64,000 nucleotides of DNA from Candidatus Saccharimonadota bacterium. Its GTDB lineage: Bacteria; Patescibacteriota; Saccharimonadia; CAILAD01; BJGX01. The stretch spans positions 76,530 through 140,529 of the forward strand of contig JAXLZU010000001.1 of the NCBI GenBank assembly GCA_046350735.1, written 5' to 3'. Below the pieces are notes generated by a model. It searched no databases. It saw only the letters and a program-made list of their open reading frames with translations, and was not told the DNA's origin. Position 1 is the stretch's first letter; each line of letters opens with the position of its first letter. Positions 1 to 54,374 of this stretch are shown piece after piece. Made by a program: the position numbers and the translations under genes.

Positions 1-728
1 CCTGAGTTGTTACGAAAAGTCATGTAGGCTGGATATGTCTTATTTGATTTGGAACTAGCTGACCCCATATGGTATGCATATGTATCCTTAACACAGTAAT
101 TCTTATAGCCCATAACAATAGAGCGCAACGCTACATCTACATCTTCTAAGTACATAAACATTGTTTCATCAAATAAAGATTCAAATGGTTGTGCATCAAT
201 AAACTCACGTGTATACATAGCTGCGGCAGCATTTACGCCCATTGTAGTGAATGAACTCGGAATGTTAATCAGATCATCTCTGTATGAACCCTGAGTGGCT
301 TGCCCACTTCTCGATAAGAATATATGCGTAGAATCTATTATGTTATGGTTGTAATAATCGAGAGTAATACCTTGCATTGCTGCTACACGCTTCTTGCCGT
401 CGGCGAAAGTAACTAGTTTTTGTGCCCATAATTTCTCAATTGTAGCGTCGGTGTTTAATAGAGCGATATACTCAACATTCTTATCTTTTAGTGCTTCGCG
501 AATACCAATATTATTTCCTTTAGCAAATCCATTATTTTTACCAGTTTCAATGCAAATTACATCTGGATAATTCTCTTTTACTAATTTAACAGAGTTGTCG
601 GCAGATCCATTATCAACATAATATATTTTTATATTGCTATACGTCTGCGCGAGCACAGAATTAATACATTCAGGCAATAATTTCTCGTTGTGCCACCCAA
701 CAATAATAAAAGCTACTACCTTTTTCAT
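1..728 (-). CDS. family-2 glycosyltransferase (GT2), C-terminally truncated by window edge
   Basis: Start ATG at 726-728 overlaps stop of downstream gene (ATGA). Translation MKKVVAFIIVGWHNEKLLPECINSVLAQTYSNIKIYYVDNGSADNS... shows the GT2 DxD-region signature. ORF continues to position 1. Confidence 0.8.
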   Translation of the reverse strand, partial: MKKVVAFIIVGWHNEKLLPECINSVLAQTYSNIKIYYVDNGSADNSVKLVKENYPDVICIETGKNNGFAKGNNIGIREALKDKNVEYIALLNTDATIEKLWAQKLVTFADGKKRVAAMQGITLDYYNHNIIDSTHIFLSRSGQATQGSYRDDLINIPSSFTTMGVNAAAAMYTREFIDAQPFESLFDETMFMYLEDVDVALRSIVMGYKNYCVKDTYAYHMGSASSKSNKTYPAYMTFRNNS

Positions 729-2413
729 AGTTGTTCATTCATTAAATTATACTTGTTTGTAACCGGTAACTGGCCGTGCATAGTAGTTTCAAAATCTTCT
801 TTTCCATATTGAGAAAGATTGTTACTAAAATTAGCTTTTGTTTGAATTGAATCTTTAAAATTCTTGGGCATAGTGAAGATATCACGAAATAAACAGCGTC
901 CAAGTGATGTTTTGTAAAGATTCTTAGTTTCACATATTTTGTTTAGCTCAGAAAAAAGAGCAGTAAAATTATCTGCTGAAATATTTGGTGTAAGTTTCGA
1001 CTCAAATGCTACAATTCCTTCCATAACTGTGTCAACGTTTCTGTCCCAATCTGCATCACCAAAACTAGTTTTTTGATTATACTTTAATCCTTTGAAGATA
1101 GGGTAGTTTCCTTCGGTAGTCTCTACAGAACCTTTATACATAACACTACCAAGGTAGTCGATTATTGTAGGAGTAATCAGTCCAATATGTTTTTGTGTAA
1201 GAAATGCAGCCATGGTATCAAGCCAAGAACTATTATTTGGTAAAGCCATACAATCAATTATTACTATTATCTCATTCTCTTCTTTTGCTTTCATTATGAT
1301 ATTATTAAACTTACCTAATGTAACCTCTTTTTTACTTGAGGTTAGCCCGTTATTCTTAACTCCATACCATTTCAAGTTATGTTTTGATTTTGTTTTATTC
1401 TGGATATGTCGTATAAAATTGTTGGTAAACAACTCATTTTCTAGATTTAGTATTATCCCAACCTTTTTATGGGGGATAGAGATCTTTGCTTCATAGAACC
1501 CGGGTGTTTTATTGCGTATTTTTACTTTTGCCTTAACGCCCTTGTGTAAATAGTAATCTTCTAATGACTTCGTTCCTGCAGTTGCAATGCTTTTCTTATT
1601 CTCAAAAGCAGAAGCAGTTGATCCGATCGCCTCTCTCCAATAGTACAAAACATATGGTACATGTATGATGTCGTTTGTGTATGATGATATTCGCAAAAAC
1701 ATATCATAGTCTTGAGCGCCATCTTTGGTTTTATCAAACCATCCCACCTTGTTGAAGATGTCTCTTTTCATTAATGTAAAATGGGTAATATAGTTTAGGT
1801 TACTAAGCAGGTCAGGCGAGTAGCTTGGTTTATAATGAGGCCCAAAATACTGCTCACCATCCTCGGTTAACTTACATTCGTCACTATAAAACATCTGGCC
1901 TTTTGGAAACTCATTGATTGCACCCACCATTAGCAATAGAGCATCAGGGTGCAATACATCGTCATGATCTAGAAGTGCAATAAAGTCACCTTTACTGAGT
2001 TTTATTGCTGAGTTGGTATTCTCACTAATACCTTTATTTTCAATCTTCTTTCTTTTAATCCGTTTGTCGTAGTCTTCAATTTGTTCAAAGTACTCGATTG
2101 CCTTTTTGCTATCACTCCCATCGGCCACAATAAGTTCGAAGTTCTCATAACTCTGATTGAGTACAGAGTTGAGAAGTGCATCAAAGTATTTACGCTGCGT
2201 ATTGTAGACAGGTACAACAATTGAAATTAGTGGTTTATTCTTTAGATTGATGTCCTTAGGTAGAACTCGTTGAATCTCACAACTCTTTTCTACTAAATAA
2301 TTATGCAGCGGATTATACCTCGGTGAATAAATACCAAGGGCTGAAAGGATTTTAATTAATCCTTTTCTTCGTTTACTGTTGGGAGGAAATAGTTTTTTTA
2401 AGATTGCTCTCAT
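725..2413 (-). CDS. GT2 glycosyltransferase with extra C-terminal domain
   Basis: 562-aa ORF. N-terminus ISIVVPVYN...LVADGSD...LLDHDDVLHPDAL is a classic GT2 core. About 250 aa of C-terminal extension. Confidence 0.85.
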   Translation of the reverse strand: MRAILKKLFPPNSKRRKGLIKILSALGIYSPRYNPLHNYLVEKSCEIQRVLPKDINLKNKPLISIVVPVYNTQRKYFDALLNSVLNQSYENFELIVADGSDSKKAIEYFEQIEDYDKRIKRKKIENKGISENTNSAIKLSKGDFIALLDHDDVLHPDALLLMVGAINEFPKGQMFYSDECKLTEDGEQYFGPHYKPSYSPDLLSNLNYITHFTLMKRDIFNKVGWFDKTKDGAQDYDMFLRISSYTNDIIHVPYVLYYWREAIGSTASAFENKKSIATAGTKSLEDYYLHKGVKAKVKIRNKTPGFYEAKISIPHKKVGIILNLENELFTNNFIRHIQNKTKSKHNLKWYGVKNNGLTSSKKEVTLGKFNNIIMKAKEENEIIVIIDCMALPNNSSWLDTMAAFLTQKHIGLITPTIIDYLGSVMYKGSVETTEGNYPIFKGLKYNQKTSFGDADWDRNVDTVMEGIVAFESKLTPNISADNFTALFSELNKICETKNLYKTSLGRCLFRDIFTMPKNFKDSIQTKANFSNNLSQYGKEDFETTMHGQLPVTNKYNLMNEQL

Positions 2414-2466
2414 AGTTTTATTAGGGTAATATATTGTATACTCAGTATAGTATATAGTATAAAACC

Positions 2467-3282
2467 ATGATTCAGAAAAAAATAGAAAATAAGATAAGAA
2501 CCAATTATAGATATTTTGATTTAATTCGAGAGTTGGCAGTTACAGATTTTAAATTAAAATACCAAGGTTCATTGATAGGTTACGCCTGGTCACTTGTAAA
2601 GCCATTAGCGATGTTTGGTGTACTATATCTTGTATTTACTGTATTTGTTCGCATCGGTTCTGGTATACAGCACTATGCATTATATCTACTACTTGGTATT
2701 GTGCTCTGGACTTACTTTGCAGATGCAACCAACACGACTATGAAAGCTGTAGCTGACAAAGGTGATATGATGCGAAAAGTATACTTTCCGCGTATCACCA
2801 TTATTATCGCGGCAAGCATTAGTTCGGCTATTACTTTATTATTGAATCTAATTGTTGTATTTATCTTTATTATTCTCGCAAGAATTGTTCCTGGATGGAA
2901 TGCCTTACTATTCATCCCGCTCTTAATTGAGCTCTTTATTCTTTGTCTTGGAATTGCTTTCATTACGAGTGCAATGTTTGTGAAATATCGTGATGTCGGT
3001 CATATTTGGGAAGTATTATTGCAGTTATTATTCTATGCAAGCGCGATTATCTATCCGCTACAAATAGTGCCTATTAGATACCAGAAGTTTATTCTACTCA
3101 ATCCTATCACTCAGATAGTACAAGATGCTAGATATTTACTAGTGACAAAAGAGACAATTACAGCAGAATCAGTTCTTAAAATGCCCCTCCAGTTTGTCCC
3201 ATATATTATTACAATACTAATTGTAGTGATTGGATTCATATATTTTGAAAGATCTTCAAAAAACTTTGCAGAGGAAGCGTAG
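2467..3282 (+). CDS. ABC-2 type polysaccharide/teichoic-acid export permease (Wzm/TagG-like)
   Basis: 271 aa with 6 predicted TM helices. ABC-2 permease signature. Immediately followed by its ATPase. Confidence 0.88.
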   Translation: MIQKKIENKIRTNYRYFDLIRELAVTDFKLKYQGSLIGYAWSLVKPLAMFGVLYLVFTVFVRIGSGIQHYALYLLLGIVLWTYFADATNTTMKAVADKGDMMRKVYFPRITIIIAASISSAITLLLNLIVVFIFIILARIVPGWNALLFIPLLIELFILCLGIAFITSAMFVKYRDVGHIWEVLLQLLFYASAIIYPLQIVPIRYQKFILLNPITQIVQDARYLLVTKETITAESVLKMPLQFVPYIITILIVVIGFIYFERSSKNFAEEA

Positions 3283-3283
3283 T

Positions 3284-4435
3284 ATGAAACGAGACACGGC
3301 AATTACAATTAGTCATATTAGCAAAACCTTTAAAGTACCACATGAAAAGCACACCAGTCTAAAAACTGCGGCCGTTAACATTTTTAAAACAAGAAAATAT
3401 ACTAAGTTTAAGGTTCTAGAAGATATTGATTTTGAAATAAAAAAAGGTGAATTCTTTGGTATCGTAGGAAAGAATGGCAGTGGAAAAAGTACATTATTAA
3501 AAATACTTGCTAATATCTACCAACCGAATAAGGGGAGAATAAGAGTAAATGGTACATTAGCACCATTTATAGAGTTAGGCGTTGGCTTTAACCCTGAGCT
3601 TACCGGACGAGAGAATGTATACTTAAGCGGTACAATACTTGGGATGAAAAGAAAGAAGATTGAAGAAATTTATAATGAGATAGTAGATTTCGCAGAAATT
3701 GGTGAATTTATGGACCAAAAATTAAAAAACTACTCATCAGGCATGCAAGTAAGATTAGCATTTTCTATAGCAGTACGTGCAGAATCTGATATTCTATTAA
3801 TTGATGAAGTACTAGCTGTAGGGGATGCAGCTTTTCAAGAGAAATGTCTTAATTATTTCGAAGAACTTAAGAGATTTAACAAGACAGTAGTATTTGTCTC
3901 TCATGATATGGAAGCAGTAACGCGGTTCTGCGACAAAGTAGTATTGATAGATAATGGACAAGTTATAAGCAGCGGTAGCGCCGATTTAGTTGCAAGTAAA
4001 TACTATCAAATCAATATGAACGATTCAGAAAATAAGCACAATGCTGAAACCACATCTCACCTAAAAAAGATTGTCTTGAAAGACAATAATGGAAGAGAAG
4101 CACATATTTTTGAAAGTCCAAAAAAGATTCAAGTAACTGTTGAGTGGAAGAAGAATCCAGAAATACAGAACATTGGCATAGCTATATTTAGAAATGATGG
4201 TACTTACTGTTTTGGGACAAATACTCAAATTGACAATTTTAAGGTGAATGACTCTAAGGTTCAGTTAGAATACGAAAATCTTAATTTGGCACAAGGTACA
4301 TATTTGCTAAAAATAAGCTTTTTTAACAAAAATGACAAGTTACCAATCGAGTTTATTGATAACGCTGTTCAATTTAAGATAAAAGACGAAACGAAGCAAC
4401 AAGGTATAATAAGAGTTAAATCTAGTTGGTATTAA
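3284..4435 (+). CDS. polysaccharide export ABC ATPase (Wzt/TagH-like) with C-terminal glycan-binding-type extension
   Basis: Walker A GKNGSGKST, ABC signature LSSGMQVRL, Walker B LLIDE. About 140-aa C-terminal extension resembling a Wzt_C terminal-residue binding domain. Start moved to the ATG at 3284 just after the permease stop, instead of the ORF-track start at 3230. Confidence 0.88.
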   Translation: MKRDTAITISHISKTFKVPHEKHTSLKTAAVNIFKTRKYTKFKVLEDIDFEIKKGEFFGIVGKNGSGKSTLLKILANIYQPNKGRIRVNGTLAPFIELGVGFNPELTGRENVYLSGTILGMKRKKIEEIYNEIVDFAEIGEFMDQKLKNYSSGMQVRLAFSIAVRAESDILLIDEVLAVGDAAFQEKCLNYFEELKRFNKTVVFVSHDMEAVTRFCDKVVLIDNGQVISSGSADLVASKYYQINMNDSENKHNAETTSHLKKIVLKDNNGREAHIFESPKKIQVTVEWKKNPEIQNIGIAIFRNDGTYCFGTNTQIDNFKVNDSKVQLEYENLNLAQGTYLLKISFFNKNDKLPIEFIDNAVQFKIKDETKQQGIIRVKSSWY

Positions 4436-4558
4436 TTGAATATACCAATATGACCAATACGTTTATAGTATGTTCCTCCTGTAACTATAGAGGATAATCC
4501 GATATTAATGGGTGTATAATACAAGAATTAATCAAAGTTGAGTGAAGGAGTATTGTTT

Positions 4559-5470
4559 ATGTCAAATTACTCGAATGTAGTGCTATCTGATGACCCTAAT
4601 ACCCCATGGTATCGAATATTTGCGTATATTGAGCCACAAAGCAGAGTTCTTGATGTTGGTTGTAGCGCCGGTAATTTTGGCAAGGCACTAATCGATCAGA
4701 AAAAGTGTATGGTTGATGGTATTGAAGTTAACAAACAAGATTCTATAAAAGCTAAAAAGAAACTGATGAATGTATATAATATTAATATTGAGAACACAGA
4801 TTTTAAAAACTTACCAGGTGACTATCGATATATATATTTTGGCGATGTTATTGAGCATTTAGTTGATCCAGTTTCAGTGTTGAAAAAAATTACAAAATTA
4901 TTATCCAAAGATGGTGAAATATTATTTTCTATACCAAATATGGCACATCTTTCTGTTCGATTAATGCTTTTAAGTGGCGAATTCAATTATGCTAAAACAG
5001 GATTACTCGATAATACTCACCTTCACTTTTATACGTTTAAGGAGATTGAAAGAGTATTTAATGAAGCAGGGTATGAGATTGTTTATCAAAAACCAATTAT
5101 TAAAGAGTATCCCCGTAAACTACTAGCTAAAGAATTAAAGAAAGTCGGTCTTAAAGGTGAAGAAACTTTCTTTAAAAGAGCATTGAATTCTGATGCTGTG
5201 GTTTGGCAGTATGTAGGAGCTGCAAGAAGATCAAACACACCCAAAGAAGCAGCTGTTCTACCGGCCATTAGCCCTGGATTAGAATTTGAAGAATTATATG
5301 CAACAACAGCTCAAGAATGCAGAGATATTATTTTAGAAAATAAGCAATTACAAGAACAATACCAAACTGCACTCAAAGTGATTAGACAAAAAAATAAAGA
5401 ACTACACACGTCTAAAAATCTCCCTTATTTTGTTATGAAAAAAATAAAAAACAGACTAAAGAGCACTTAG
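4559..5470 (+). CDS. class I SAM-dependent methyltransferase with C-terminal coiled-coil tail
   Basis: Motif I VLDVGCSAGNFG. AAGGAG RBS 8 nt upstream of the ATG at 4559. C-terminal heptad-like KQLQEQYQTALKVIRQKNKEL. Confidence 0.8.
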   Translation: MSNYSNVVLSDDPNTPWYRIFAYIEPQSRVLDVGCSAGNFGKALIDQKKCMVDGIEVNKQDSIKAKKKLMNVYNINIENTDFKNLPGDYRYIYFGDVIEHLVDPVSVLKKITKLLSKDGEILFSIPNMAHLSVRLMLLSGEFNYAKTGLLDNTHLHFYTFKEIERVFNEAGYEIVYQKPIIKEYPRKLLAKELKKVGLKGEETFFKRALNSDAVVWQYVGAARRSNTPKEAAVLPAISPGLEFEELYATTAQECRDIILENKQLQEQYQTALKVIRQKNKELHTSKNLPYFVMKKIKNRLKST

Positions 5471-5471
5471 T

Positions 5472-7433
5472 ATGGTTTCTGATAAAAATTCTGTCTCACA
5501 TCAAAATATCTTAGAAGTTAATAACGAGTTCTTTAATGAGGATGAAAGCAAAGAAATATATGTACGAAATAAAAATGATCCTCGATTAATTTCATTCTAC
5601 TTGCCACAATTTTACCCTATCCCCGAGAATGACAAGAGTTGGGGTAAAGGGTTTACGGAATGGACAAATGTTAGAAAAGCTGAGCCACGCTTCGTAGGCC
5701 ATCAACAACCATTTTTACCTCTGAACGATGACTATTACGATCTGAGAGATCCGAATGTTTTAGAACAACAAATACGATTAGCCAAACAATATGGTATCTT
5801 TGGTTTTTGCTTTTACCACTATTGGTTCAGTGGAAAAAGACTACTAGATGTGCCTCTAGATATCTTTTTACAAAATAAGCAATGGGACTTTGGTTTTATG
5901 ATTTGTTGGGCAAATGAGAATTGGACAAAACGCTGGGATGGCAGAGAAGAAGAAATAATTATCGCCCAAAAATATAGAGATAATGACCCCTTAGAATTCA
6001 TCAAGTCTGTTGAACATATAATAATTGATCCGCGCTATATAAGAAACAATAACAAGCCTGTGCTAATGGTTTATAGAGCACCTGACCTGAGGGATCCACT
6101 TGCTTACTCAAATATCTGGAGAAAATATTTGCGCGATAAATACTCAATTGAGATTGAACTTGTAACCACAATAGGTTTTGATTTGGTCGATCCACGATCG
6201 TATGGCTTTGATAAGGCCTTGGATTTTGAACCACTAACGTATGGTTTAAAAAAGTCTGGTAATGACGGTTCCCAGGTAATATCACGAAAGGTTTCAAGAA
6301 AACTAATTGATAAAGAATTTACTGGTAATGTTGAGGATTATAGGAATATAGCATTGGACGATAAACAGTATGAAGTATTTAATTTCCCAAACTACAAGGC
6401 TATTATGCCGTCGTGGGATAATGATGCCAGAAGAAAAGGAAAGGGATTTACTATGCACAATTCAACTCCTGATGTTTACGCACATTGGCTAAAAAATACA
6501 ATAAAAATAGAAACTAGTAATAATAAACAAGAACCTCTGATATTTATTAACGCCTGGAATGAATGGGGTGAAGGGGCGGTCCTAGAGCCCACAAAACATT
6601 TTGGATATGCTAACTTGTTAAGAACAGCTGAAATACTGTCGCAGTATAATAAGTCAAAGAGGAATCTAGATAATTTCCCTCTCTATAGAATTCGAAGAGG
6701 GGGAGATAGTAAGTTGGCTGTGGTAATTCACCTGGAAGGTGGACTCAACTGGGATGTTTTAAACGAGAAGCTTGGTTATTTAAAGAATATAAAACATGAT
6801 CTATTTTTTTATATATCTAAAGACTTAGATATTAGTGAATCTTATATTCAACAACTCTACCCAAATTCAAACATTTATTACTTTAGCCCTAATGAATATA
6901 TTATGATGCGCCTTATGCATGTAGGTAGACGATTACTAGAATGTGGATATGATAATCTCCTCAATATTGCATCGTCACAAAGCATCAATTTGGATAAGGG
7001 CATTGAGGATATCTTACCGAGTAAACAGCAAGCATTCAAAGCTTATAAGACACTACAGAATCATTCAAACAGCGCTATAGGGGTTACGGAGCATTCATCG
7101 CCACTTACTAATACTGTCGTTAAAGACAATCCAAAGATTAAAGAGGTTTTGTCGAATATATACAACCCAACTCTTGCGGACATTATTTTAGAAGAGACAT
7201 TTGGTTTCGGAAAGTACAAAAATTATTCTTTTTGGGTTAATCTGCCTACAATCAGCCAACTATTAAATTTTTATTTTCTACCTTATGATTTTCTTAACCC
7301 CACCGAAGGAACTCCTGATGCACTTAATGATGCGTTATGGAATGTTTTTTGGATGCTACCAAAGCTTAGAGGAGGATCTATATACAGCATCGGTAAGGGC
7401 GACATTATGACAGAAAAGTTTGAAGTAATGTAA
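5472..7433 (+). CDS. WbsX-like glycan-processing protein (Glyco_tran_WbsX family)
   Basis: N-terminal FYLPQFYPIPENDKSWGKGFTEWTNV is the hallmark of the WbsX family. 653 aa. Confidence 0.72.
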   Translation: MVSDKNSVSHQNILEVNNEFFNEDESKEIYVRNKNDPRLISFYLPQFYPIPENDKSWGKGFTEWTNVRKAEPRFVGHQQPFLPLNDDYYDLRDPNVLEQQIRLAKQYGIFGFCFYHYWFSGKRLLDVPLDIFLQNKQWDFGFMICWANENWTKRWDGREEEIIIAQKYRDNDPLEFIKSVEHIIIDPRYIRNNNKPVLMVYRAPDLRDPLAYSNIWRKYLRDKYSIEIELVTTIGFDLVDPRSYGFDKALDFEPLTYGLKKSGNDGSQVISRKVSRKLIDKEFTGNVEDYRNIALDDKQYEVFNFPNYKAIMPSWDNDARRKGKGFTMHNSTPDVYAHWLKNTIKIETSNNKQEPLIFINAWNEWGEGAVLEPTKHFGYANLLRTAEILSQYNKSKRNLDNFPLYRIRRGGDSKLAVVIHLEGGLNWDVLNEKLGYLKNIKHDLFFYISKDLDISESYIQQLYPNSNIYYFSPNEYIMMRLMHVGRRLLECGYDNLLNIASSQSINLDKGIEDILPSKQQAFKAYKTLQNHSNSAIGVTEHSSPLTNTVVKDNPKIKEVLSNIYNPTLADIILEETFGFGKYKNYSFWVNLPTISQLLNFYFLPYDFLNPTEGTPDALNDALWNVFWMLPKLRGGSIYSIGKGDIMTEKFEVM

Positions 7434-7528
7434 TTAACAAAAACAATCCAATTTACTGTGTACATAATGAAGCAGTTATATAAAAGCCAACGTAATAATA
7501 ACCTCTTATAAATGATATAATAACAGGT

Positions 7529-8500
7529 ATGAAACAACCAACTGTAAGCGTGGTAGTACCAAATTGGAATGGCAAAGACATATTAGGTAAATGCCTAGAC
7601 TCGCTACAAACACAAAGCTACAGGCCAGCTGAGATTATTGTTGTAGAGAATGGTAGTATTGATGGCTCGGCCGAGTATATTGCCAAACACTATCCAGAAG
7701 TTGCGCTGATTGTAGAACCGGAAAATCTCGGGTTTGCAGGCGGAGTAAATGTTGGTATAAAAGCAGCCAAATCTGATTATATTTGGCTGTTTAATAACGA
7801 CGCGGTGGCGCAAAAAGATTGTTTGGCCAAACTAGTGGCTACAGCAGTAAAGAGCAACGCAGATATTACCTCTGCAGTTATTCTTAGCCAAGACGGTAAA
7901 AAGATAGATTCCGATGGAGATGTCTATACTATCTATGGGTTTCCTTACCCCAGACACCGTAACTTGGCAGCTAGCGAACTACCAAAGCAAGATGAACCTA
8001 TCTTTGCTGCTAGCGGCGGTGCTAGCCTGTATAAAGCATCGCTATTTACAGACATTGGCTACTTCGAAGAATCGTTCTTTGCGTATTACGAAGATGTAGA
8101 CTTAAGTATGCGTGCACAGTTGCAGAAAAAATCTCTTTGGCTTAGCCATAATGCCATTGTGTTACATGCCACCAGCCATACCAGTAATAAAATTCCCGGG
8201 TTCGGCAGAGAGATGGCAATTAGAAATAGTATATATATCTTTTGGCGTGATCTACCAAAAGGTGTACAGGGCAAAGTTTTTTGGCGATTCTTATGTGCCA
8301 ATTGGCGGCTTAGTTTGGTTTCGATACTCAAGGGACATCCATACAGAGTTTTACGGGCGCACTTTACTGCGTTGTTCCATACTCCACAATTACTAAAGGC
8401 AAGAAAAGAAATTCAGTCTAGCAAAAAAATGAGTGCCGAACAATTTCTCGGCCTTATTAGTAGAGAGAACCCGTTTAAAGTATTAAAGAGTCGCCAGTAA
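7529..8500 (+). CDS. GT2 glycosyltransferase
   Basis: VSVVVPNWNG...IVVENGSIDGS...LFNNDAV motifs. 323 aa. Confidence 0.85.
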   Translation: MKQPTVSVVVPNWNGKDILGKCLDSLQTQSYRPAEIIVVENGSIDGSAEYIAKHYPEVALIVEPENLGFAGGVNVGIKAAKSDYIWLFNNDAVAQKDCLAKLVATAVKSNADITSAVILSQDGKKIDSDGDVYTIYGFPYPRHRNLAASELPKQDEPIFAASGGASLYKASLFTDIGYFEESFFAYYEDVDLSMRAQLQKKSLWLSHNAIVLHATSHTSNKIPGFGREMAIRNSIYIFWRDLPKGVQGKVFWRFLCANWRLSLVSILKGHPYRVLRAHFTALFHTPQLLKARKEIQSSKKMSAEQFLGLISRENPFKVLKSRQ

Positions 8501-12754: not shown

Positions 12755-14080
12755 TTATCTTCCTGGCCAGGAGCTATCTGCCCAAGCCCAGCCAATGTAT
12801 GGTCCGGCACCTACCGAGCTAATAGTGGTAATACGGGCGCCATAAGCCTTTCCATTATATGTATATCCATTACTCACAAACTGACCGTTGCCAATAGATA
12901 GCATTACATGGCCATAGCCACCATTTACATTTGCGGCACCAAAGAACGCTAAGGCACCGGCAGGCACATTAGTATCACCTCTATGCATTTGCCCAGTGGC
13001 AATTTTAGCATTCGCATTGGCAAGTGCACTGCCATATCGCCCACGTGTACCAAAGGCTTGCTCCACCATAAGTTCACACAGACCGTTCCAAGAAGTACTA
13101 CCAACTTGTGATTTAGCCCAGTTGATTGCTCGCTGCTCTTTGGTAGTAATTATCGGGGAAGGTGGAGCAGAACAACCTGCAGCCCCAGCGTATGGGTAGG
13201 TAGCAAACATGGTATTAATTTCGGCTTGCGATGCCGAGCGGACACCATTCCAACCACCATAGCAACGTAGCAATGTTTCGGCACTAGACATACCAAATAT
13301 TTGCCCGTTGTGCAGTAAGAAAACGGTTCCATTTGGCGACAAAAGTTTGGTGCCTTCTGGCAGGCTATACTGACAACCTGCAGTACCGCCACCGGGGTAC
13401 GTTATTGTAAGTCTAAGAATCTCGGCATCACTAACATGATGTACCGCTGACCAACCGCCATAACAGCCAAGAACTGCCGGGCTCGGAATGGCGAGCCAAG
13501 TACTATTTCTTACTAAATATACACCTGGTCCAGAACCTTGCAAGAGCGTATTGTTTGCATAAGTAATTCTACTACAGGTAAACGTACCGGCATTTGAGTA
13601 GGTAGCCATGGCCCAACGAAATTCATAGGCTGGCATGTTCATTTGTACTGGTGCCCAACCACCTAGACACGCAATAAGTGTTTCGGGGTTAGGAACCCAA
13701 TAGCTATTGCTGCCCGAAATTACGTACACCGCACTACTGTTAGGGTCTTTAAAGGTCTTATTATTTGGGTAAACTACCCGGCAGAACGCGGGCTGACTAA
13801 CACCCATAGTTACTATGGCATCATTAAGAAGGCTATCATTAATCCAATTAACGCGAGACCAACCACCTAGGCAAGTAGTGAGTGTTTCTGGGTCTAAGAT
13901 GGGATGGAGGTTACCATTACTCACATAATACACACCAGGCCCCGAACCCTTTAGTAGACTGCCATCGGGGTAACGTGTGCTGGCAGAAGCCTGTTGTTGT
14001 GAAAGTGCAAGGCCACAAATCGTAAGAACAATGGCCAATAATGAAAAAACGACCTTGTGGGTCGTAGGGGAGGTTTCCAT
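12755..14080 (-). CDS. secreted cell-wall hydrolase: signal peptide, about 5 CxGGW repeats, C-terminal CHAP/NlpC-P60-like Cys-His domain
   Basis: AAGGAGG RBS 6 nt before the second in-frame ATG (METSPTTHKVVFSLLAIVLTICGLALS signal peptide). Repeated modules of about 55 aa each contain C(L/Y)GGW. C-terminus has WNGLCELMV...GYGHVMLSIG (Cys/His pair). Visibly GC-richer than neighbouring genes. Confidence 0.7.
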   Translation of the reverse strand: METSPTTHKVVFSLLAIVLTICGLALSQQQASASTRYPDGSLLKGSGPGVYYVSNGNLHPILDPETLTTCLGGWSRVNWINDSLLNDAIVTMGVSQPAFCRVVYPNNKTFKDPNSSAVYVISGSNSYWVPNPETLIACLGGWAPVQMNMPAYEFRWAMATYSNAGTFTCSRITYANNTLLQGSGPGVYLVRNSTWLAIPSPAVLGCYGGWSAVHHVSDAEILRLTITYPGGGTAGCQYSLPEGTKLLSPNGTVFLLHNGQIFGMSSAETLLRCYGGWNGVRSASQAEINTMFATYPYAGAAGCSAPPSPIITTKEQRAINWAKSQVGSTSWNGLCELMVEQAFGTRGRYGSALANANAKIATGQMHRGDTNVPAGALAFFGAANVNGGYGHVMLSIGNGQFVSNGYTYNGKAYGARITTISSVGAGPYIGWAWADSSWPGR

Positions 14081-14229
14081 TGTCATCCTCCTTGTTCGGC
14101 GCTGGGGACTTGTGATTACAATGGAATATATCCACCTTACCAAATCTAAAAATGGCTTTGCAAGCAGCAGCAGTTTTATGCCGCCTCATGCTTAAAAAAT
14201 ATACTATTTTAAGGTATAATACCCTAGAT

Positions 14230-17719: not shown

Positions 17720-18034
17720 ATGAAAAAAGATACTCGAAAATATATTGATAGGCGGGATTATCTAATTGCTGCAGTTGCCAAAAGACGTAAGGTACTAAAA
17801 GAAAAATCAGTACAATACAAAGGTGGTAAGTGCGAGCTATGTGGCTACGAGAAATGTATTGAAGCCTTGGATTTTCATCATAAAGATCCAAAAACAAAGA
17901 AATTTGGCATTAGCCATAAAGGATATACTCGCAGCTGGCAGGATGTGCAAGGCGAACTAAATAAGTGTGTTTTGGTTTGTGCAAATTGCCATAGAGAGAT
18001 AGAAGCAGGAGTATCAAACATTAATCCGGGGTAG
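17720..18034 (+). CDS. HNH endonuclease
   Basis: CELCGY...HHKDP...CANCH (HNH/zinc-ribbon motif). Stop codon lies inside the 5' acceptor stem of the following tRNA. Confidence 0.85.
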   Translation: MKKDTRKYIDRRDYLIAAVAKRRKVLKEKSVQYKGGKCELCGYEKCIEALDFHHKDPKTKKFGISHKGYTRSWQDVQGELNKCVLVCANCHREIEAGVSNINPG

Positions 18035-18336
18035 CTCAGTGGTAGAGCAGTTGGCTGTAAATTGATGCAGCGTTTAGTGGTAACACTAAGATGAAAATAG
18101 GGTGAATTGCGGGAAGCCTAAGTGAGAATATGGTAATCCGCAGCCAAGCCAAGAAGAGCAAAGGTTTCTTGGAAGGTTCAGAGACTAGAGGGTGAGACTC
18201 AACAATAATCTCTCAGATAGCGCCCTACATCCGTCATGGCGGATGATGATATAGTCCATTCCCATTTGAAAATTTGGGGTAGATGTAACCAATTGGTCGC
18301 TGGTTCGAATCCAGTCCCCGGAGCCATAGTACTTAT
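18025..18336 (+). tRNA. tRNA-Asn(GUU) interrupted by a group I intron in the anticodon loop
   Basis: 5' exon 18025-18058 TCCGGGGTAGCTCAGTGGTAGAGCAGTTGGCTGT. 3' exon 18296-18336 TAACCAATTGGTCGCTGGTTCGAATCCAGTCCCCGGAGCCA. Joined sequence gives a 75-nt cloverleaf with anticodon loop CUGUUAA (GUU), closely resembling bacterial tRNA-Asn. CCA is encoded. Confidence 0.85.
18059..18295 (+). mobile_element. group I self-splicing intron (ORF-less), inserted between anticodon-loop positions 35 and 36
   Basis: 5' exon ends in U and pairs with internal guide GCAGC (18068-18072) to form P1 with a U.G wobble. Intron ends in G. Core elements UUGCGGGAAGCC, UAUGGUAAUCCGCAGCCAAG, P7 5' strand CAGAGACUAGA and P7 3' strand AUAUAGUCC match the Tetrahymena-type group I core. 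Confidence 0.8.
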
Positions 18337-30166: not shown

Positions 30167-30985
30167 ATGAACAAAAAATATTCAAAACTCGATATCCTGC
30201 GTTGGGTAATTCTAATAATAATAGCCATTACAAACATATACATAGTAAAAAATCCTGTACTATCTTTGCTAATATTCTTGTTACCAATCACTTTTGTATT
30301 CTTACATAGTGGTAATTATTTTGGTTGGGTGCATACCCTCATTATGTTTGTACTAATTATTGCAATTGGATTTTTAGGAGAATATCTTGGTGTTCATACA
30401 GGAGTAATCTTTGGTAATTACTATTACAACCCTAGCCCCAATGTAAACGGATTTCTTATAGGAGGTGTGCCACCACTAGTAACATTTAGTTATGTATCGA
30501 TGGGCTATACCTGTTATATTTTGTCACGAATTATTTTAGGCTACTACAAGAAGGTAACTGGTTGGATGGTATTGGGTATCGCGGCAATGGCTGCAGTATT
30601 TATGGTAATTTGGGATATGTGTTTTGATCCAACCTCTTCTATTGTCCAGCATCTTTGGACATGGCAGAAGGGAGGTGCCTACTTTGGTGAGCCCTTTCAA
30701 AATTTTACGGGTTGGTTTATGGTAACCTTTACATTTTTTGTGGCTATAGGACTGTATTTGTGGTGGCGTTCGAAACCCAAAGACTATATTGCTAAGCCAA
30801 GCAAACTATTTTTATTAGAACCAATTATTCTTTTTGCCGCCAGTGCATTCTCTATCGTTGTTAAAGAAATGTCTCCAAGCCCAACTGTACTGCAGCAAAA
30901 TCTTGCTCTCATTGCATTATTTGGTATGGGTACAATTATACTAATTGCGGTATTACGGTTACTAACTACGAAAGGTTTTCACTAA
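30167..30985 (+). CDS. polytopic membrane protein (hypothetical)
   Basis: 272 aa with about 7 TM helices. Translationally adjacent to the next gene. Confidence 0.6.
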   Translation: MNKKYSKLDILRWVILIIIAITNIYIVKNPVLSLLIFLLPITFVFLHSGNYFGWVHTLIMFVLIIAIGFLGEYLGVHTGVIFGNYYYNPSPNVNGFLIGGVPPLVTFSYVSMGYTCYILSRIILGYYKKVTGWMVLGIAAMAAVFMVIWDMCFDPTSSIVQHLWTWQKGGAYFGEPFQNFTGWFMVTFTFFVAIGLYLWWRSKPKDYIAKPSKLFLLEPIILFAASAFSIVVKEMSPSPTVLQQNLALIALFGMGTIILIAVLRLLTTKGFH

Positions 30986-30987
30986 GA

Positions 30988-32652
30988 ATGGACATTGATA
31001 AAAATACAAAACAGAATATTGCAGCTGCACTTTGGCTAGATGAATATAATGAGGAAAAAATAGATAAAGACTTGCTACAACAAATTAATTCCGATAAAAA
31101 CTCATCTACTCAAATAGGTGCACGTATGCGACATTATTTGCAGTGGCTGAAAGACAATCAACAAACTCATAATCCTAATTACAGTAAACGTTATACATTA
31201 TTAACAAGCTTGGTGGGCGATATTAATGTACAAGCTGCCTATGTAATTGCAATGAAATTCTTGGGAAATAACGCAACCCAGGGATTTGAGGAAATGCCGA
31301 GCGTTTCTAATATAACGTTTCCCCGTGATCATGCACCACAGTTACGTAGCCAAGTTGGTTGGCATTTCTTTGTTGGTAGTGCTTGGGATGAAGATGGAGA
31401 AGAGTATGGAATAGAATTAATGTTTTTTAGAATTGCACTTTTGCCACCGAATATGGCCAATCAACTTGGTATTAGTGATATAGAAAATCAAATTGTAGAA
31501 ATTCAACTTGGAATATCTAAGGCAGGTGAAAGACATTATCAGGCAGAACCGATTGTAGTTGCCGGTACCTCAGGACTTATAGATATTATACCTAACCCAC
31601 TGCGTTACACTGTAGGTAAAAATGAAATTCGTGTTGACAAAAAAGACTCATTCTTTCCGATAAATGTTAAAGCCCAAGGTGATGATAATGGTCAGAGCCC
31701 TGCGGTAAGATTGGGTGTAGACCTTACTTTTACAAATGGTAGAGAATATCTTTACCAGGGTGACGATGGTTGTATGCCATGTGTTGCCGGAATGGGTACA
31801 CTCTATTATTCAATACCCAACTTAACTCTTAAGTCTGGCAGCTCAATTGTATATAAAGGTAAAAAAGTGACTCTTAAGAAAGGTACATTTTGGTTTGATC
31901 ATCAGTGGGGATTCTTGGGTGGTAATTCTCATTCTGCCATTCTTCGGGCTGCAAACAATATTGGCAAACCTATGCAGATGGGCTGGGATTGGTATATGGC
32001 CCAATTCGTAGGTAATAGACAACTAACAATGTTTGCTTCGCATAGTCCTGCTAATAAGCAATTTTATTTTCAGACAGGGCCAAAAGAGCCCGGTACAATG
32101 ACAGTTGATGTTGCGGGTAAGTATATGGATGAGAACAAAAAACTACACAATACATGGGGCACTCTAGTAATCGATAAATGGGTAAAAAGCGAAGCAAGCC
32201 CTAACCCAGATAAGTACCCAATAACGCACACGTGGCATCCTAACCACTGGAAGTTTGCATTCGACAAAACACTACCAGAGGAAATTCGTAACTTTGAGCT
32301 TCATCAGATTGTTCCGGTAGCTCAAACCAATTATTTTGCAAATGGATCACAGTATAATGAGGGTGCCGTGTATATTACTAATCCAGAAGGTAAGGATATA
32401 GGACGTGGTTTTGCCGAGGCTGTGCAATATGCCGACTGTACTGATAACATGATTAAATTGGCCGGATTTAATTACACAAAAGAAATTCACAATCTTTTTT
32501 CTCAGAGCGCTTCTTGGCCACGCAAATTATCTAGCTTATTGTATGTACTAGTGCATCAAAAAGAATTAAAGAAAACACTCTCTAGCGCAAAAGGAATGGA
32601 GTTCTTTAGTCGACCCAGTAAATCATCACCCAAAGTGAGCTCGAGACATTAA
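30988..32652 (+). CDS. AttH/CrtC-like (lipocalin-like domain) protein
   Basis: FWFDHQWGF and W-rich beta-strand pattern resemble the hydroxyneurosporene-synthase/AttH family. Assignment is tentative. Confidence 0.45.
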   Translation: MDIDKNTKQNIAAALWLDEYNEEKIDKDLLQQINSDKNSSTQIGARMRHYLQWLKDNQQTHNPNYSKRYTLLTSLVGDINVQAAYVIAMKFLGNNATQGFEEMPSVSNITFPRDHAPQLRSQVGWHFFVGSAWDEDGEEYGIELMFFRIALLPPNMANQLGISDIENQIVEIQLGISKAGERHYQAEPIVVAGTSGLIDIIPNPLRYTVGKNEIRVDKKDSFFPINVKAQGDDNGQSPAVRLGVDLTFTNGREYLYQGDDGCMPCVAGMGTLYYSIPNLTLKSGSSIVYKGKKVTLKKGTFWFDHQWGFLGGNSHSAILRAANNIGKPMQMGWDWYMAQFVGNRQLTMFASHSPANKQFYFQTGPKEPGTMTVDVAGKYMDENKKLHNTWGTLVIDKWVKSEASPNPDKYPITHTWHPNHWKFAFDKTLPEEIRNFELHQIVPVAQTNYFANGSQYNEGAVYITNPEGKDIGRGFAEAVQYADCTDNMIKLAGFNYTKEIHNLFSQSASWPRKLSSLLYVLVHQKELKKTLSSAKGMEFFSRPSKSSPKVSSRH

Positions 32653-49186: not shown

Positions 49187-50518
49187 GTGATGCTCAGTAC
49201 TCGGCTACATGACCATTTACAGGCAACCGATCTGCTACCCCCACAATCTAAATTAGTGGTGGCTGTTTCTGGTGGGGTAGATTCTGTTGCCCTTCTAAAC
49301 ATGTTACATGAGCTACAAGATTTTTATGGTTGGCAAATGGTTGTTGCACACCTAGATCATAATGCTCGTCCTTCTAGTGCACATGATGCCCAATTTGTTG
49401 CTGGCTTGGCAGAATCGTACAATATGCCGTTTTATTTAGAAAAACTCAGTAAAGACAATGCGACAACAGAAGCAGCATGGCGAGCTGCACGATACTCATT
49501 CTTAGAAAGACTTCGTGAAGAGCTCAATTACCATACTATTGTTACCGCTCACCATGGCGACGATCGAATTGAGACAGCAGTATTTAACTCTATTAGGGGG
49601 GCTGACAGGGAAGGTATTACCGCCCTCAAAGCAAAACGCGGCAATATTTCTCGCCCGCTTTTACCTTTTAGTAAGGCCGAAATTATTACCTATGCCAACC
49701 TCAAAGAATTACCATTTGTTACCGATGAAACAAATACCGACATTGGTTTTAGTCGTAACTATGTACGCGAAGAGCTCTTACCGCTGGGCAGCACAATGTA
49801 TCGTAACTTTCGTCACTCGTTTCATACCGTGCTAAATCATCTAGAAGATTTGAACAAAAAAATCTCACTAAGACTGCATAATGTTGTTACAGATCTTACC
49901 ATAAGTTCATCCGCAGAGAGTGTCGAGCTTGCCAAAGAGGGATTTCGTAAGTTGCCTGATACAATTGCTCTTAATGTAATTGCACTCTTGGCAAAACAGC
50001 TAAGCCCAGGTATTGGTCTTAGTCAGAGCAATCTAAGGCAAGCACTTGGCTTTTGGCAAACCGGCAAAAGCGGTAGTAGCAAAAACCTTAAGGCTGGCTT
50101 GCAACTCTCGATAGGATATGATACCGTAAGAATCGCATATCATACCGACGAAACCTTACTCACTTCTGAAGAAACTGCTCGATTGCTTACCGATTCTAGC
50201 CCCTATCAAAATAAACATTTTACCATCCAAATGACAGGCTCTATTGCTCAGGGGGATGATTCTGTCATTTTAAAACCAGCAAAATATTATGTACGTTTGC
50301 GCCAGAGTGGTGACAGAATTGCTCCTATTGGTTTGCAAGGCAGCAAGAAATTACAAGATATATTTGTTGATAAAAAAATACCGCGAGAGCTCAGAGGACA
50401 TTGGCCTATCATTGTAAATAGTCGTAATGAGGTAGTATGGGTGCCATTTATTGCCACGAGTCGCAACCACAGTGTTGACTCAAAAAGCGGTATAAAGATA
50501 GTTTGTAAGAAGAATTAA
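49187..50518 (+). CDS. tilS: tRNA(Ile)-lysidine synthetase
   Basis: PP-loop SGGVDS. TilS-type N-terminal domain. 443 aa. Confidence 0.9.
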   Translation: MMLSTRLHDHLQATDLLPPQSKLVVAVSGGVDSVALLNMLHELQDFYGWQMVVAHLDHNARPSSAHDAQFVAGLAESYNMPFYLEKLSKDNATTEAAWRAARYSFLERLREELNYHTIVTAHHGDDRIETAVFNSIRGADREGITALKAKRGNISRPLLPFSKAEIITYANLKELPFVTDETNTDIGFSRNYVREELLPLGSTMYRNFRHSFHTVLNHLEDLNKKISLRLHNVVTDLTISSSAESVELAKEGFRKLPDTIALNVIALLAKQLSPGIGLSQSNLRQALGFWQTGKSGSSKNLKAGLQLSIGYDTVRIAYHTDETLLTSEETARLLTDSSPYQNKHFTIQMTGSIAQGDDSVILKPAKYYVRLRQSGDRIAPIGLQGSKKLQDIFVDKKIPRELRGHWPIIVNSRNEVVWVPFIATSRNHSVDSKSGIKIVCKKN

Positions 50519-52433: not shown

Positions 52434-54374
52434 GTGGAGTATATGCCCGAAGAACAGGTAGCAGAAATAGTTGCGCCAACTTGGCTAAAAGTTACTACTT
52501 GGTTATTACTAATAACCACTGGAATTATTCTAGTAATTCTCTGTTTTTGGTGGCGACAATATACCGCAAAGATAGACGATCTTACCTCTCGTAACTATGT
52601 CGGAAAGACTGATACTGGCGATTTCTTAAAGCAAGGAATGAGTGCAACAACAGGCCAGTTAACTGTTGATGGTAAAGCCATCATTAATGGCGATTTGCAT
52701 GTTACGGGTACTATTACGACAGATCAGAATAATATTAGCGTATCTAACTCAGCAGGTAATTATTATACCAATTACTTTGCCGGTGGTTGTAGTGCTCAGG
52801 TAATCTGTAACTCTACACTACTGCAAACAAGAAAAGAATTTGTTATTCAGCCAAGTAGTCCGTACGTAGTTGGCGCTACAGTTCGAGGTAACACAACACA
52901 GGCAGTCGATCTCTTACAGCTTCAAAATGCATCTGGATACTCTATGATAAATGTTACTGCGAATGGTAGGCTCGGAGTGAATAATCCAAGTCCGCAATAT
53001 AATGTTGACGTCAATGGTCAAGGAAGATTTTTGGGGCATACTGCGTATGGTAATGTATCAGCTGTAGATAATCCAAGTATACTTACACCGCTTACAGGCA
53101 CCCCTGTTATTAGGGTAAATGGCACCCAAGAGGTTGTTACAAATTTAACCCCCGGGTATAACTATTATTCTGGTGCATCTTCCGAATATTTTGTTAATTT
53201 GGGACAATCTGCTAATTCTCAGTACTTTACAGGTGGATATCATGCGGGTGAGATTGTTAGCGGTAACCCTCAAGACTATTTAGGATTAGCAGGAGAGACT
53301 GGTCTTGCAGTACATGAGGGCACTGGCAATATTAATTTAATGTCTGGTATATTGGGCTACACCTTTAATAACTCTAGTGGTAATATTGGTGCGGCGGCTG
53401 GAACATTTGGATTTCTGAAAAACAATGATAGTGGCAATATTGATACCGGCGTTGGTGCAGGAGGGGTAATAGAAAATCCTGGAGTTGGTGTAATAGGAAT
53501 TGCGAATGGTTTGTCTTCTAGTGTAATTAACGGTGGTCTTTTCGGTGGAGGCTCTGGTTCTATTGGTAATGCAAATGGGGTATCTGCTGGCGTAACCAAT
53601 AATAGTTCTGGAACTATAGATAATGTCACAGTTTATGATGTTCAGCCGGTAGTAAATAATGGCGGTGCAATCGGTAATGTAAGAGGGATTTATATCGGCG
53701 ACCAAAGCGCAGTTGCTAATGTTTCTGGAGTTAAGTACAACCTAGAGTCTATGGGAAATAATAGTACTAATCTTTTCCATGGTGCAGTTGGTGTTGGCTC
53801 TGGTGCTGCACCAACCAATAAACTTACTGTTACCGACACCACCACCAACAACGTTGCCAAGTTTAACGGTACTGGCGTAAATCAATGTACCGTCGTAGCT
53901 GGTACTGGATGGAGCTGTAGTAGTGATGAAACATTAAAGACTAACATTCTAAGTATTAGTAATGGCCTCGGTGTCATTACCCAACTTCAAGGTGTCACCT
54001 ATAACTGGAAGAGTGACCCTAACGGTACCCGCCAAGATGGCTTTATTGCCCAAGACATCCAAAAGATCTTACCCGAACTCGTTACTACCGACTCTAACGG
54101 TAAACTCTCTCTTAACAAAGACGGTATTATGCCCTTTATTGTAGAAGCCATAAAAGAACAAAACGGCAACTTAGACAAAACCAACCAACAACTCTCTGAC
54201 CAAGGTATTAAACTCACTAGCCTGAGTGATGAGTTGGTGGCACTGACGAAGCGGGTAGATCAGCATGATGTGGATATAGAACAATTAAAGGCGCAAGTAC
54301 AACAACTAAATAGTCGTCTGCAAAAACTCGAACCAGCGAATACTAATTCTACTAACACTACTACAACACCATAA
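52434..54374 (+). CDS. membrane-anchored tail-fibre-like surface protein with C-terminal intramolecular-chaperone (peptidase S74-type) domain
   Basis: N-terminal TM helix. About 400 aa of Gly/Asn/Ser-rich beta-repeat region (SGNIGAAAGTFGF..., SGNIDTGVGAGG...). C-terminus SSDETLKTNI...GVTYNWKSD...GFIAQDIQKILPELV...GIMPFIVEAIKEQ matches the phage tail-fibre chaperone/autoproteolytic domain. Start may be the GTG at 52434 or the ATG at 52443. Confidence 0.72.
   Translation: MEYMPEEQVAEIVAPTWLKVTTWLLLITTGIILVILCFWWRQYTAKIDDLTSRNYVGKTDTGDFLKQGMSATTGQLTVDGKAIINGDLHVTGTITTDQNNISVSNSAGNYYTNYFAGGCSAQVICNSTLLQTRKEFVIQPSSPYVVGATVRGNTTQAVDLLQLQNASGYSMINVTANGRLGVNNPSPQYNVDVNGQGRFLGHTAYGNVSAVDNPSILTPLTGTPVIRVNGTQEVVTNLTPGYNYYSGASSEYFVNLGQSANSQYFTGGYHAGEIVSGNPQDYLGLAGETGLAVHEGTGNINLMSGILGYTFNNSSGNIGAAAGTFGFLKNNDSGNIDTGVGAGGVIENPGVGVIGIANGLSSSVINGGLFGGGSGSIGNANGVSAGVTNNSSGTIDNVTVYDVQPVVNNGGAIGNVRGIYIGDQSAVANVSGVKYNLESMGNNSTNLFHGAVGVGSGAAPTNKLTVTDTTTNNVAKFNGTGVNQCTVVAGTGWSCSSDETLKTNILSISNGLGVITQLQGVTYNWKSDPNGTRQDGFIAQDIQKILPELVTTDSNGKLSLNKDGIMPFIVEAIKEQNGNLDKTNQQLSDQGIKLTSLSDELVALTKRVDQHDVDIEQLKAQVQQLNSRLQKLEPANTNSTNTTTTP

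Follow-up and report, generated by a model that had tools for sequence, protein, structure and literature searches.

A Wzm-Wzt exporter with an adjoining stand-alone, tailed methyltransferase in Saccharibacteria: the probable core of a methyl-capped surface-glycan pathway

In a stretch of 64,000 nucleotides from a Candidatus Saccharimonadota bacterium (contig JAXLZU010000001.1 of assembly GCA_046350735.1, positions 76,530 to 140,529; hereafter the window) we found consecutive genes encoding an ABC-2 permease (Wzm), its ATPase (Wzt) and a class I S-adenosylmethionine (SAM) methyltransferase with a helical tail. The locus probably represents the core of an ABC-transporter-dependent surface-glycan pathway, in which a methyl-capped chain would be read by the carbohydrate-binding domain (CBD) of Wzt. 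An earlier reading of the DNA, made from the letters alone (the sequence-only reading), had named the same three open reading frames (ORFs), and the ORF listing indeed contains all three at the coordinates collected in Table 1. The kind of system is already known and Wzt_C is annotated in databases; what is new is that the proposed terminator, a compact stand-alone member of a large uncharacterised methyltransferase family, is the standard partner of Wzm-Wzt(CBD) in Saccharibacteria, which are very small bacteria that depend on a host.

The order wzm-wzt-methyltransferase is the standard arrangement in Saccharibacteria. Relatives of the methyltransferase were scanned in one genome per species, which gave 80 loci in which the proteins of the window were searched by tblastn. 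The closest relatives occupy 37 of these loci (L007-L041, L067 and L071), 34 of which are informative, having about 1 kb or more of upstream DNA. Wzt was found upstream of the methyltransferase orthologue, on the same strand and usually immediately next to it, in 31 of the 34, and Wzm preceded Wzt wherever the contig reaches far enough (26 loci). Since it recurs in that many informative loci from other genomes, the arrangement is not due to chance. The exceptions are three Microbacteriaceae genomes that lack an upstream Wzt; a Prolixibacteraceae contig outside the 34 (L009), with only about 1 kb of upstream DNA, gave no Wzt match. A reverse look-up yielded a methyltransferase of about 300 amino acids (aa) downstream of a Wzt_C-bearing Wzt in five out of five sampled relatives, and the transporter was absent (tblastn) from the loci of distant, core-only homologues of the methyltransferase. 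Nearly all close relatives of both Wzt and the methyltransferase come from Saccharibacteria/Saccharimonadales genomes, and the identical 383-aa Wzt is called on 11 public contigs. The sequence-only reading had considered such a module unexpected for a minimal Gram-positive-type cell; the conserved synteny makes it typical of Saccharibacteria instead.

Across the Saccharibacteria loci the nucleotide-binding domain (NBD) of Wzt is 57-66% identical, whereas the CBD is 25-36% identical or undetectable; a CBD that diverges so much more than the NBD fits a specificity-determining domain. The usual order of the locus is a GT2 glycosyltransferase (GT) gene on the minus strand, followed by Wzm-Wzt-methyltransferase-dual GT2; the window departs from it in having the dual GT2 gene upstream and in inverse orientation. 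Homologues of the 562-aa GT2 protein directly follow the methyltransferase in many Saccharibacteria loci, and orthologues of the 323-aa GT2 are found divergently oriented, upstream of wzm, in most of them. At two of the loci from the reverse look-up an extra, unrelated methyltransferase adjoins the tailed one, namely a Methyltransf_24 protein between wzt and the tailed methyltransferase (L091, 6161-6880) and another class I enzyme after the tailed one (L088, 10154-11098); the caps at these loci may be doubly methylated.

Inspection of the sequence revealed no terminator-like site between wzm, wzt and the methyltransferase gene. The longest ORF of wzt opens with a TTG at 3230, and its likely start is the ATG at 3284, one base past the stop codon of Wzm. 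The best NCBIfam matches of Wzm were galactan and capsule Wzm/KpsM models, below their cut-offs. The C-terminal extension of 140 aa that had been noticed earlier in the ATPase proved real: when searched with profile hidden Markov models (HMMs), it was found to be a Wzt_C domain (PF14524; residues 261-377 of the 383-aa protein) that scores 55.8 bits against a Pfam gathering score of 30.4, and Foldseek detected its fold similarity to the Wzt of Aquifex. In a phmmer search against PDB sequences full-length Aquifex aeolicus Wzt (8DKU/7K2T) came first (E 3e-67, residues 33-373 aligned to 26-379), and a profile of 37 Saccharibacteria Wzt sequences matched the same protein with an E-value of 7e-96 across positions 7-380. 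The AlphaFold2 model of Wzt, with a predicted local distance difference test (pLDDT) score of 85, comprises the NBD and an all-beta domain (260-382), with a hinge helix between them. Its seven best PDB matches in Foldseek are full-length chains of the Aquifex transporter (about 375 columns, 34-35% identity, E about 1e-36), and structures of an NBD only rank after these; compared with the Aquifex Wzt NBD alone (6M96/6AMX), the NBD is 42% identical, with target-normalised template-modelling (TM) scores of 0.83-0.85. Aquifex WzmWzt (7K2T, 8DKU, 6O14 and 8DKY) is the closest solved relative of the window Wzt over both domains, with 35% identity over 375 columns. The two are alike in the NBD-hinge helix-CBD layout, in the ABC-2 permease partner and in a sugar-contacting Asn313, but Aquifex is a diderm in which the glycan goes onto lipopolysaccharide, whereas the host of the window is a monoderm-type Saccharibacterium.

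The cap that the Aquifex CBD binds is 3-O-methyl-mannose or 3-O-methyl-rhamnose, with Asn313 contacting the ring oxygen and His350 contacting O2, Trp362 forming the lid of the methyl pocket and Tyr233 of the hinge helix touching the next sugars (Spellmon et al., PMC9445017). We mapped these residues with the profile alignment to Aquifex and the 37-sequence family alignment, in which the equivalences are provisional at the low identity of the CBD. Aquifex Asn313 corresponds to Asn313 in the window (kept in 36 of the 37 sequences), Trp362 to Phe357 (26 of 37), His350 to Phe347 (28 of 37) and the hinge-helix residues Tyr232/Tyr233 to Tyr240/Tyr241, with Tyr240 invariant in the 37 sequences; Thr346 is replaced by Lys. 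As judged from these alignments, the extension is a genuine Wzt CBD with a predicted pocket that is similar but not identical to that of Aquifex. Since both Trp362 and His350 are Phe in the window Wzt, the specificity probably differs from that in Aquifex. The CBD would read a modified non-reducing chain end for export, a role that the kept Asn313 and the aromatic residue in place of Trp362 support indirectly.

The methyltransferase was modelled with AlphaFold2 from a 36-sequence alignment (mean pLDDT 87.5) as a Rossmann core (1-224), a linker, a long helix of about 47 residues (240-286; pLDDT about 90) and a final helix (288-302). The family has the invariant motifs LDxGCSxG, GDVIEHL, SxPN and TGxxDxxHxH, together with an invariant Ser-Pro in the linker between the core and the long helix. 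Among 117 homologues the tail past this Ser-Pro motif measures 50 to 100 residues (median 67), and the final 18 residues are strongly amphipathic, with a hydrophobic moment of 0.71 and a median net charge of +6. The long helix of the tail, which the sequence-only reading had called a coiled coil, is indeed present in the model; its coiled-coil nature is only modestly backed, with a heptad a/d hydrophobicity of 0.64 in the 117 homologues versus 0.52 +/- 0.08 in shuffles, and with a 3-4 hydrophobic spacing, seen by eye in helix 240-286, that has an Asn at one core position. Apart from the methyltransferase domain and the helical tail no other domain, and specifically no kinase domain, was found in the 303 aa.

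The best solved relative of the methyltransferase is Bacillus cereus BCE_1332 (3CC8; E 2e-32 with the single sequence and 6.6e-51 with the family profile), with a target-normalised Foldseek TM score of 0.83 and 35% identity in the structural alignment. The next solved relative, in profile and Foldseek searches, is Pectobacterium ECA1738 (2P7H), after which generic class I enzymes follow. BCE_1332 is a protein of about 230 aa and, unlike the window methyltransferase, has no stalk, no amphipathic tail and no adjoining Wzm-Wzt. In Bacillus sp. CH140a_4T (L042, 5534-10719) a homologue from the 3CC8 family lies between GT2 genes, adjoining bclA and an RmlA-like gene, which suggests that 3CC8-type enzymes methylate exosporium glycan sugars. 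BclA is said to carry 3-O-methyl-rhamnose, reportedly described by Daubenspeck and co-workers in 2004, and a methyltransferase is reportedly linked to this sugar. In PMC9614988, BclA is named only with anthrose, and a link between a methyltransferase and the 3-O-methyl-rhamnose of BclA was not found there.

The same module occurs in much larger proteins. A HMMER search with the methyltransferase family profile returned 3,577 cluster representatives at E <= 1e-30, many of which are long proteins that carry the methyltransferase and its tail at the N-terminus. In ten fused proteins scanned with Pfam (for P0389 the Pfam families on record were used) the methyltransferase was followed, for instance, by GT2+GT2 (P0310, 914 aa), GT2+GT4 (P0284, 1032 aa), GT2+GT2+GT4 (P0339, 1377 aa), GT4 (P0354, 722 aa) or RgpF+WbsX (P0324 and P0389, 1132 and 1148 aa). 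The parts of these proteins resemble separate proteins of the window: the methyltransferase is 40% identical to P0310 (E 7e-46), the 562-aa GT2 protein is 38% identical to the first GT2 domain of P0310 (E 6e-50) and the WbsX protein is 37% identical to the WbsX domain of P0389 (E 8e-66). Moreover, the gene encoding P0310 overlaps the end of a Wzt_C-bearing wzt and adjoins sugar-nucleotide genes. A search with P0310 recovered the fused architecture in Paenibacillus (core 32-33% identical, E 1.5e-25 and 1.9e-24), cyanobacteria, methanotrophs, sulfur oxidisers and several candidate phyla, some of the fusions being labelled 'O-antigen biosynthesis protein'. Given these fusions of one methyltransferase-plus-coil module to GT2, GT4, RgpF and WbsX domains, the window appears to hold a split, stand-alone form of a terminator-polymerase machine. 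The family of 3,577 representatives seems to be the source of the terminator module in many fused terminator-polymerases.

The coiled coil between the methyltransferase and the GT modules varies widely in length among the fused proteins, and ends in a basic amphipathic motif (e.g. SRSWRITKPLRYV...KVRSKL or SWRITKPLR...) that resembles the C-terminus of the window methyltransferase. A recurrent form of this coil-end motif, S-x-S-W-(R/K)-hydrophobic-T-x-P-L-R followed by basic residues, was seen in stand-alone members (at the C-termini of the tails) and in fused ones (internally in P0483 and P0310), and the window methyltransferase carries a degenerate version, NLPYFVMKKIKNRLK. In P0451 of Lyngbya aestuarii (1105 aa) the coil (residues ~260-480) consists of about 16 tandem 14-residue units (QAQLQQTQGELxxS) and looks like a ruler that was lengthened via repeat expansion.

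In the mechanism that we propose, the neighbouring GT2, GT4 and WbsX enzymes would build a polyprenol-linked glycan at the cytoplasmic face of the membrane, where the methyltransferase would be held via its basic amphipathic C-terminal helix, with the helical stalk of about 47 residues (about 7 nm if fully extended) keeping the catalytic domain off the membrane. Once the chain reaches the methyltransferase, its non-reducing terminal sugar would be O-methylated and elongation would stop. The Wzt CBD would then recognise the capped end and bring the lipid-linked chain to the Wzm channel, ATP hydrolysis would power export and, outside the cell, the Wzy_C-DUF2079 protein would probably move the chain to an acceptor, for instance a protein.

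WbdD is a protein of about 700 aa with a much longer coiled coil than the 303-aa methyltransferase of the window, with its stalk of about 47 residues. The order of its parts is catalytic domain, coiled coil and amphipathic helix, and WbdD of Escherichia coli O8/O9a and Klebsiella O5/O3 is like the window methyltransferase, as modelled, in this order and in being a protein separate from the polymerase (PMC11231755). The kinase domain of the O9a/O3-type WbdD has no counterpart in the window. According to Kelly et al. (PMC11231755), terminators have a coiled coil as 'a characteristic marker', and the terminating module occupies the distal end of this coil. In Klebsiella pneumoniae O7 ORF6 and O12 WbbB the terminator module is indeed at the coil's distal end and the GT modules are at the other, and orthologues of the Klebsiella terminator-polymerases that end after the coiled coil exist as well (PMC11231755). 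The methyltransferase family described here is of the same type in that fused and stand-alone forms are both present, but ORF6 adds methyl-phosphate by means of a methyltransferase-kinase pair and WbbB adds beta-Kdo, whereas the window protein is a methyltransferase only.

The parallel that the sequence-only reading had drawn with WbdD and WsaE holds for the latter better than for the former. No WbdD chain was found at E <= 0.1 when PDB sequences were searched with the methyltransferase family profile, and none is included in the 50 best Foldseek matches of the model. The window methyltransferase resembles WbdD in architecture, not by ancestry. The wzm-wzt-wsaE genes of Geobacillus are closer in architecture. 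In Geobacillus stearothermophilus these genes overlap, WsaE (methyltransferase+GT+GT) makes a 2-O-methyl-rhamnose cap, and WsaB, a transferase with a Wzy_C domain, attaches the glycan to protein (PMC2943079). Like the host of the window, Geobacillus is a monoderm with the order wzm, wzt and then the methyltransferase; the P0310-type relatives have exactly the architecture of WsaE directly after wzt, and the Saccharibacteria locus L088 holds a WsaF-type GT as in Geobacillus. The window differs in that the methyltransferase and the glycosyltransferases are encoded by separate genes, unlike WsaE, and in that the Wzy_C protein is fused to DUF2079, unlike WsaB; nor was an S-layer protein found.

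The main rival explanation shares the glycan pathway and differs in the role of the methyl group, which would decorate internal or side-chain sugars while the CBD reads another terminal feature. We regard it as unlikely, yet several findings speak for it. The second, unrelated methyltransferase at L088 and L091 suggests multiple methylations. The methyl pocket of Wzt is conserved only in part. In addition, the Wzm-Wzt(Wzt_C) cassette of Southlakia epibionticum, made up of SEML1_0892 (dual GT2), 0893 (Wzt with PF14524), 0894 (Wzm) and 0895 (GT2), has no adjoining methyltransferase (supplementary tables of PMC10633639), implying that a CBD of Saccharibacteria can work without such an enzyme next door. 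The last two points weigh against a methyl-capped chain read by the Wzt CBD, as do four others: apart from the class I fold, homology between the methyltransferase and WbdD could not be detected; the tail gives a weak heptad signal; actinobacterial full-length homologues (L033) are found among unrelated metabolic genes, outside glycan clusters; and the scan of window proteins (ORFs of at least 80 aa up to 16 kb and of at least 150 aa up to 56 kb) yielded no initiating phosphoglycosyl transferase, no LCP ligase and no sugar-nucleotide (rhamnose-precursor) genes. On the other hand, a membrane-anchoring helix and a long stalk fit a simple decorating enzyme poorly, the methyltransferase of the fused relatives is at the opposite end of the coil from the GT modules, which is the layout of a terminator (PMC11231755), and the Wzt of Aquifex, the closest solved one, binds a methyl cap.

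Two further explanations were rejected on curated cut-offs and genomic context. That Wzm-Wzt is a wall teichoic acid exporter of the TagGH/TarGH type, and the cluster makes a polyol-phosphate polymer, is suggested by the best NCBIfam matches of the ATPase, which are models of teichoic acid export ATPases (E 8e-62 and 2e-56), and by TagH/TarH structures among the fold and sequence matches of the NBD. Nevertheless, the scores of the two models (209.6 and 191.2 bits) stay below their cut-offs (538 and 320), the TagH/TarH matches are limited to the NBD whereas the Aquifex match extends through the CBD, and the scanned proteins of the window (same size limits as above) include GT2, GT4 and WbsX neighbours but neither Glyphos_transf (TagF/TarL) nor genes for CDP-glycerol or CDP-ribitol, so that we consider this very improbable. 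Hardly credible to us is a housekeeping methyltransferase (MetW-, UbiG- or BioC-like, or acting on RNA) with no relation to the transporter, lying beside it by accident. MetW, UbiG and BioC are indeed the top named Pfam/NCBIfam families of the methyltransferase, homologues are labelled 'benzoquinol methylase' or 'MetW' in public sources, and actinobacterial homologues are found among metabolic genes. However, the NCBIfam scores stay far below the cut-offs (MetW 51.9 against 189.5, UbiG 41.7 against 102.95, BioC 33.1 against 184.95, and the CmoB and TlyA models far under theirs), so the small-molecule or rRNA enzyme that the sequence-only reading had allowed for was not what we found, and the synteny with Wzm-Wzt in 31 of 34 loci and all five reverse look-ups, together with the repeated fusions to glycosyltransferases, argues for a role in glycan synthesis.

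The preferred reading, a methyl-capped chain exported by Wzm-Wzt, predicts that a surface glycan conserved in environmental Saccharibacteria follows an ABC-transporter route and bears an O-methyl cap that is read by the Wzt CBD. The envelope of Saccharibacteria is barely described. The pathway looks important, in that the Southlakia genes homologous to the cassette score as essential or as causing a growth defect. In transposon sequencing (Tn-seq) the genes of this cassette, as well as SEML1_0898 (GT2) and 0900 (GT4), were classed as GD/ES/ES and SEML1_0899 (GtrA) as GD/GD/ES, where GD is growth defect and ES is essential (PMC10633639). The Wzm-Wzt cassette genes go undiscussed in the text of that paper. 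SEML1_0890 and 0891, which it highlights as essential 'polysaccharide-binding' proteins, immediately adjoin the cassette. The exopolysaccharide (EPS) genes SEML1_0081-0083, also highlighted there, were considered as this system and rejected; they form a separate cluster of the Wzx/Wzy type. Glycosylation of Saccharibacteria pili was called 'unexplored' in a 2024 preprint (PMC11623550), and our literature search found no paper that names Saccharibacteria together with Wzt. It is conceivable, though on balance doubtful, that Saccharibacteria and other Patescibacteria use a minimal stand-alone terminator of 300 aa, made up of the methyltransferase, a short coiled coil and an amphipathic anchor, whose tail of 50-100 residues sets the length of a methyl-capped surface glycan, and that this pathway is the essential-scoring one in Southlakia. 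If true, a capped glycan of controlled length would belong to the core of the envelope in these epibionts, where it has so far gone undescribed, and could offer a target for host recognition, for phage attachment or for immune detection; the small stand-alone methyltransferase is also convenient for the molecular-ruler question.

Table 1. Coordinates (positions in the window) of the exporter genes, their domains and the neighbouring glycan genes
Feature	Position	Strand	Remarks
Wzm, ABC-2 permease	2467-3282	+	271 aa; ABC2_membrane E 9e-14 (Pfam)
Wzt	3284-4435	+	383 aa; ABC_tran E 8e-22 and Wzt_C 55.8 bits
Wzt NBD, residues 1-245	3284-4018	+	ABC_tran E 8e-22
Wzt CBD, residues ~260-383, with stop codon	4061-4435	+	Pfam Wzt_C
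Ribosome-binding site AAGGAG	4545-4550	+	8 nt 5' of the methyltransferase ATG; read from the sequence
Methyltransferase gene	4559-5470	+	ATG at 4559; 303 aa; Methyltransf_23 E 4e-18
Class I SAM methyltransferase core, residues 1-224	4559-5230	+	proposed chain-terminating O-methyltransferase
Long alpha-helix, residues 240-286	5276-5416	+	AlphaFold2; proposed coiled-coil stalk/ruler
Basic amphipathic C-terminal helix LPYFVMKKIKNRLKST, with stop codon	5420-5470	+	AlphaFold2 helix 288-302; proposed membrane anchor
GT2 protein, 562 aa	725-2413	-	N-terminal Glycos_transf_2 E 3e-24; candidate chain-extending enzyme
WbsX-domain protein, 653 aa	5472-7433	+	Glyco_tran_WbsX E 4e-119; start 1 nt past the methyltransferase stop
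GT2 glycosyltransferase, 323 aa	7529-8500	+	Glycos_transf_2 E 9e-28
GT2 glycosyltransferase, 278 aa	8500-9336	+	Glycos_transf_2 E 1e-24
Wzy_C-DUF2079 fusion, 927 aa	9321-12104	+	Wzy_C E 2.5e-15 (residues 205-377); DUF2079 E 3e-50 (residues 489-923)
GT4 glycosyltransferase, 398 aa	14152-15348	+	Glycos_transf_1 E 1e-35; Glyco_transf_4 E 8.5e-11

The flanking GT2 genes, GT4 gene and WbsX-like protein that had been named in the sequence-only reading were all borne out by Pfam matches (Table 1). The second half of the 562-aa GT2 protein had no Pfam match. An RgpF-like C-terminus of the WbsX protein (last 260 aa) is a weak lead, suggested by one pairwise BLASTP match (E 0.001) to the RgpF region of P0389 and not confirmed by Pfam, in which nothing was found at E <= 10. 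Hints of a rhamnan are weak: rhamnosyltransferase matches stay below threshold, one relative has a WsaF-type GT along with an RmlD-like gene, and RgpF occurs in a fusion.

Because of the role of WsaB in Geobacillus (PMC2943079), the Wzy_C-DUF2079 protein is, by analogy, a candidate for the transfer of the exported glycan to its acceptor; its Wzy_C domain is of the O-antigen ligase/O-oligosaccharyltransferase family. Its gene overlaps the preceding GT2 gene by 16 nt, and related Saccharibacteria loci have stand-alone Wzy_C proteins in place of the fusion. DUF2079 is a predicted membrane protein for which the literature search found no papers. Between the Wzy_C-DUF2079 gene and the GT4 gene the window contains, at 12755-14143 on the minus strand, a gene for a predicted secreted protein of 462 aa that lacks a Pfam match and contains four internal repeats, each about 75 residues long; the position of this gene is kept in nearly identical contigs.

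The G+C content is 33-37% across positions 1-8000 of the window (with the genes for the 562-aa GT2 protein, Wzm, Wzt, the methyltransferase and the WbsX protein), whereas most of the window has about 40%. Another low-G+C stretch was found at 20-26 kb.

Several other features were noticed elsewhere in the window. At 18025-18324 (plus strand) a tRNA gene is split in its anticodon region by a full-length group I intron (Rfam RF00028, 98.5 bits, 18048-18278); after in silico removal of the intron ARAGORN identified tRNA-Tyr (GTA), with approximate splice sites. At 30167-32652 (plus strand) neighbouring genes have matches to Caroten_synth (PF04240) and to the CrtC lipocalin domain (PF07143), beside a secretory-lipase-like gene, a content that is unexpected for a reduced genome. 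Three tRNA genes within a 7-kb stretch (41885, 47440 on the minus strand, and 48410) have the anticodon CAT, and tilS (encoding lysidine synthetase) was found at 49187-50518; since one of the three is about 700 bp upstream of tilS, at least one of them is probably tRNA-Ile2 and not tRNA-Met. Finally, a 646-aa protein with a C-terminal Peptidase_S74 domain, the intramolecular chaperone of endosialidase and tail-fibre proteins, is encoded between ftsH and murJ (52434-54374, plus strand).

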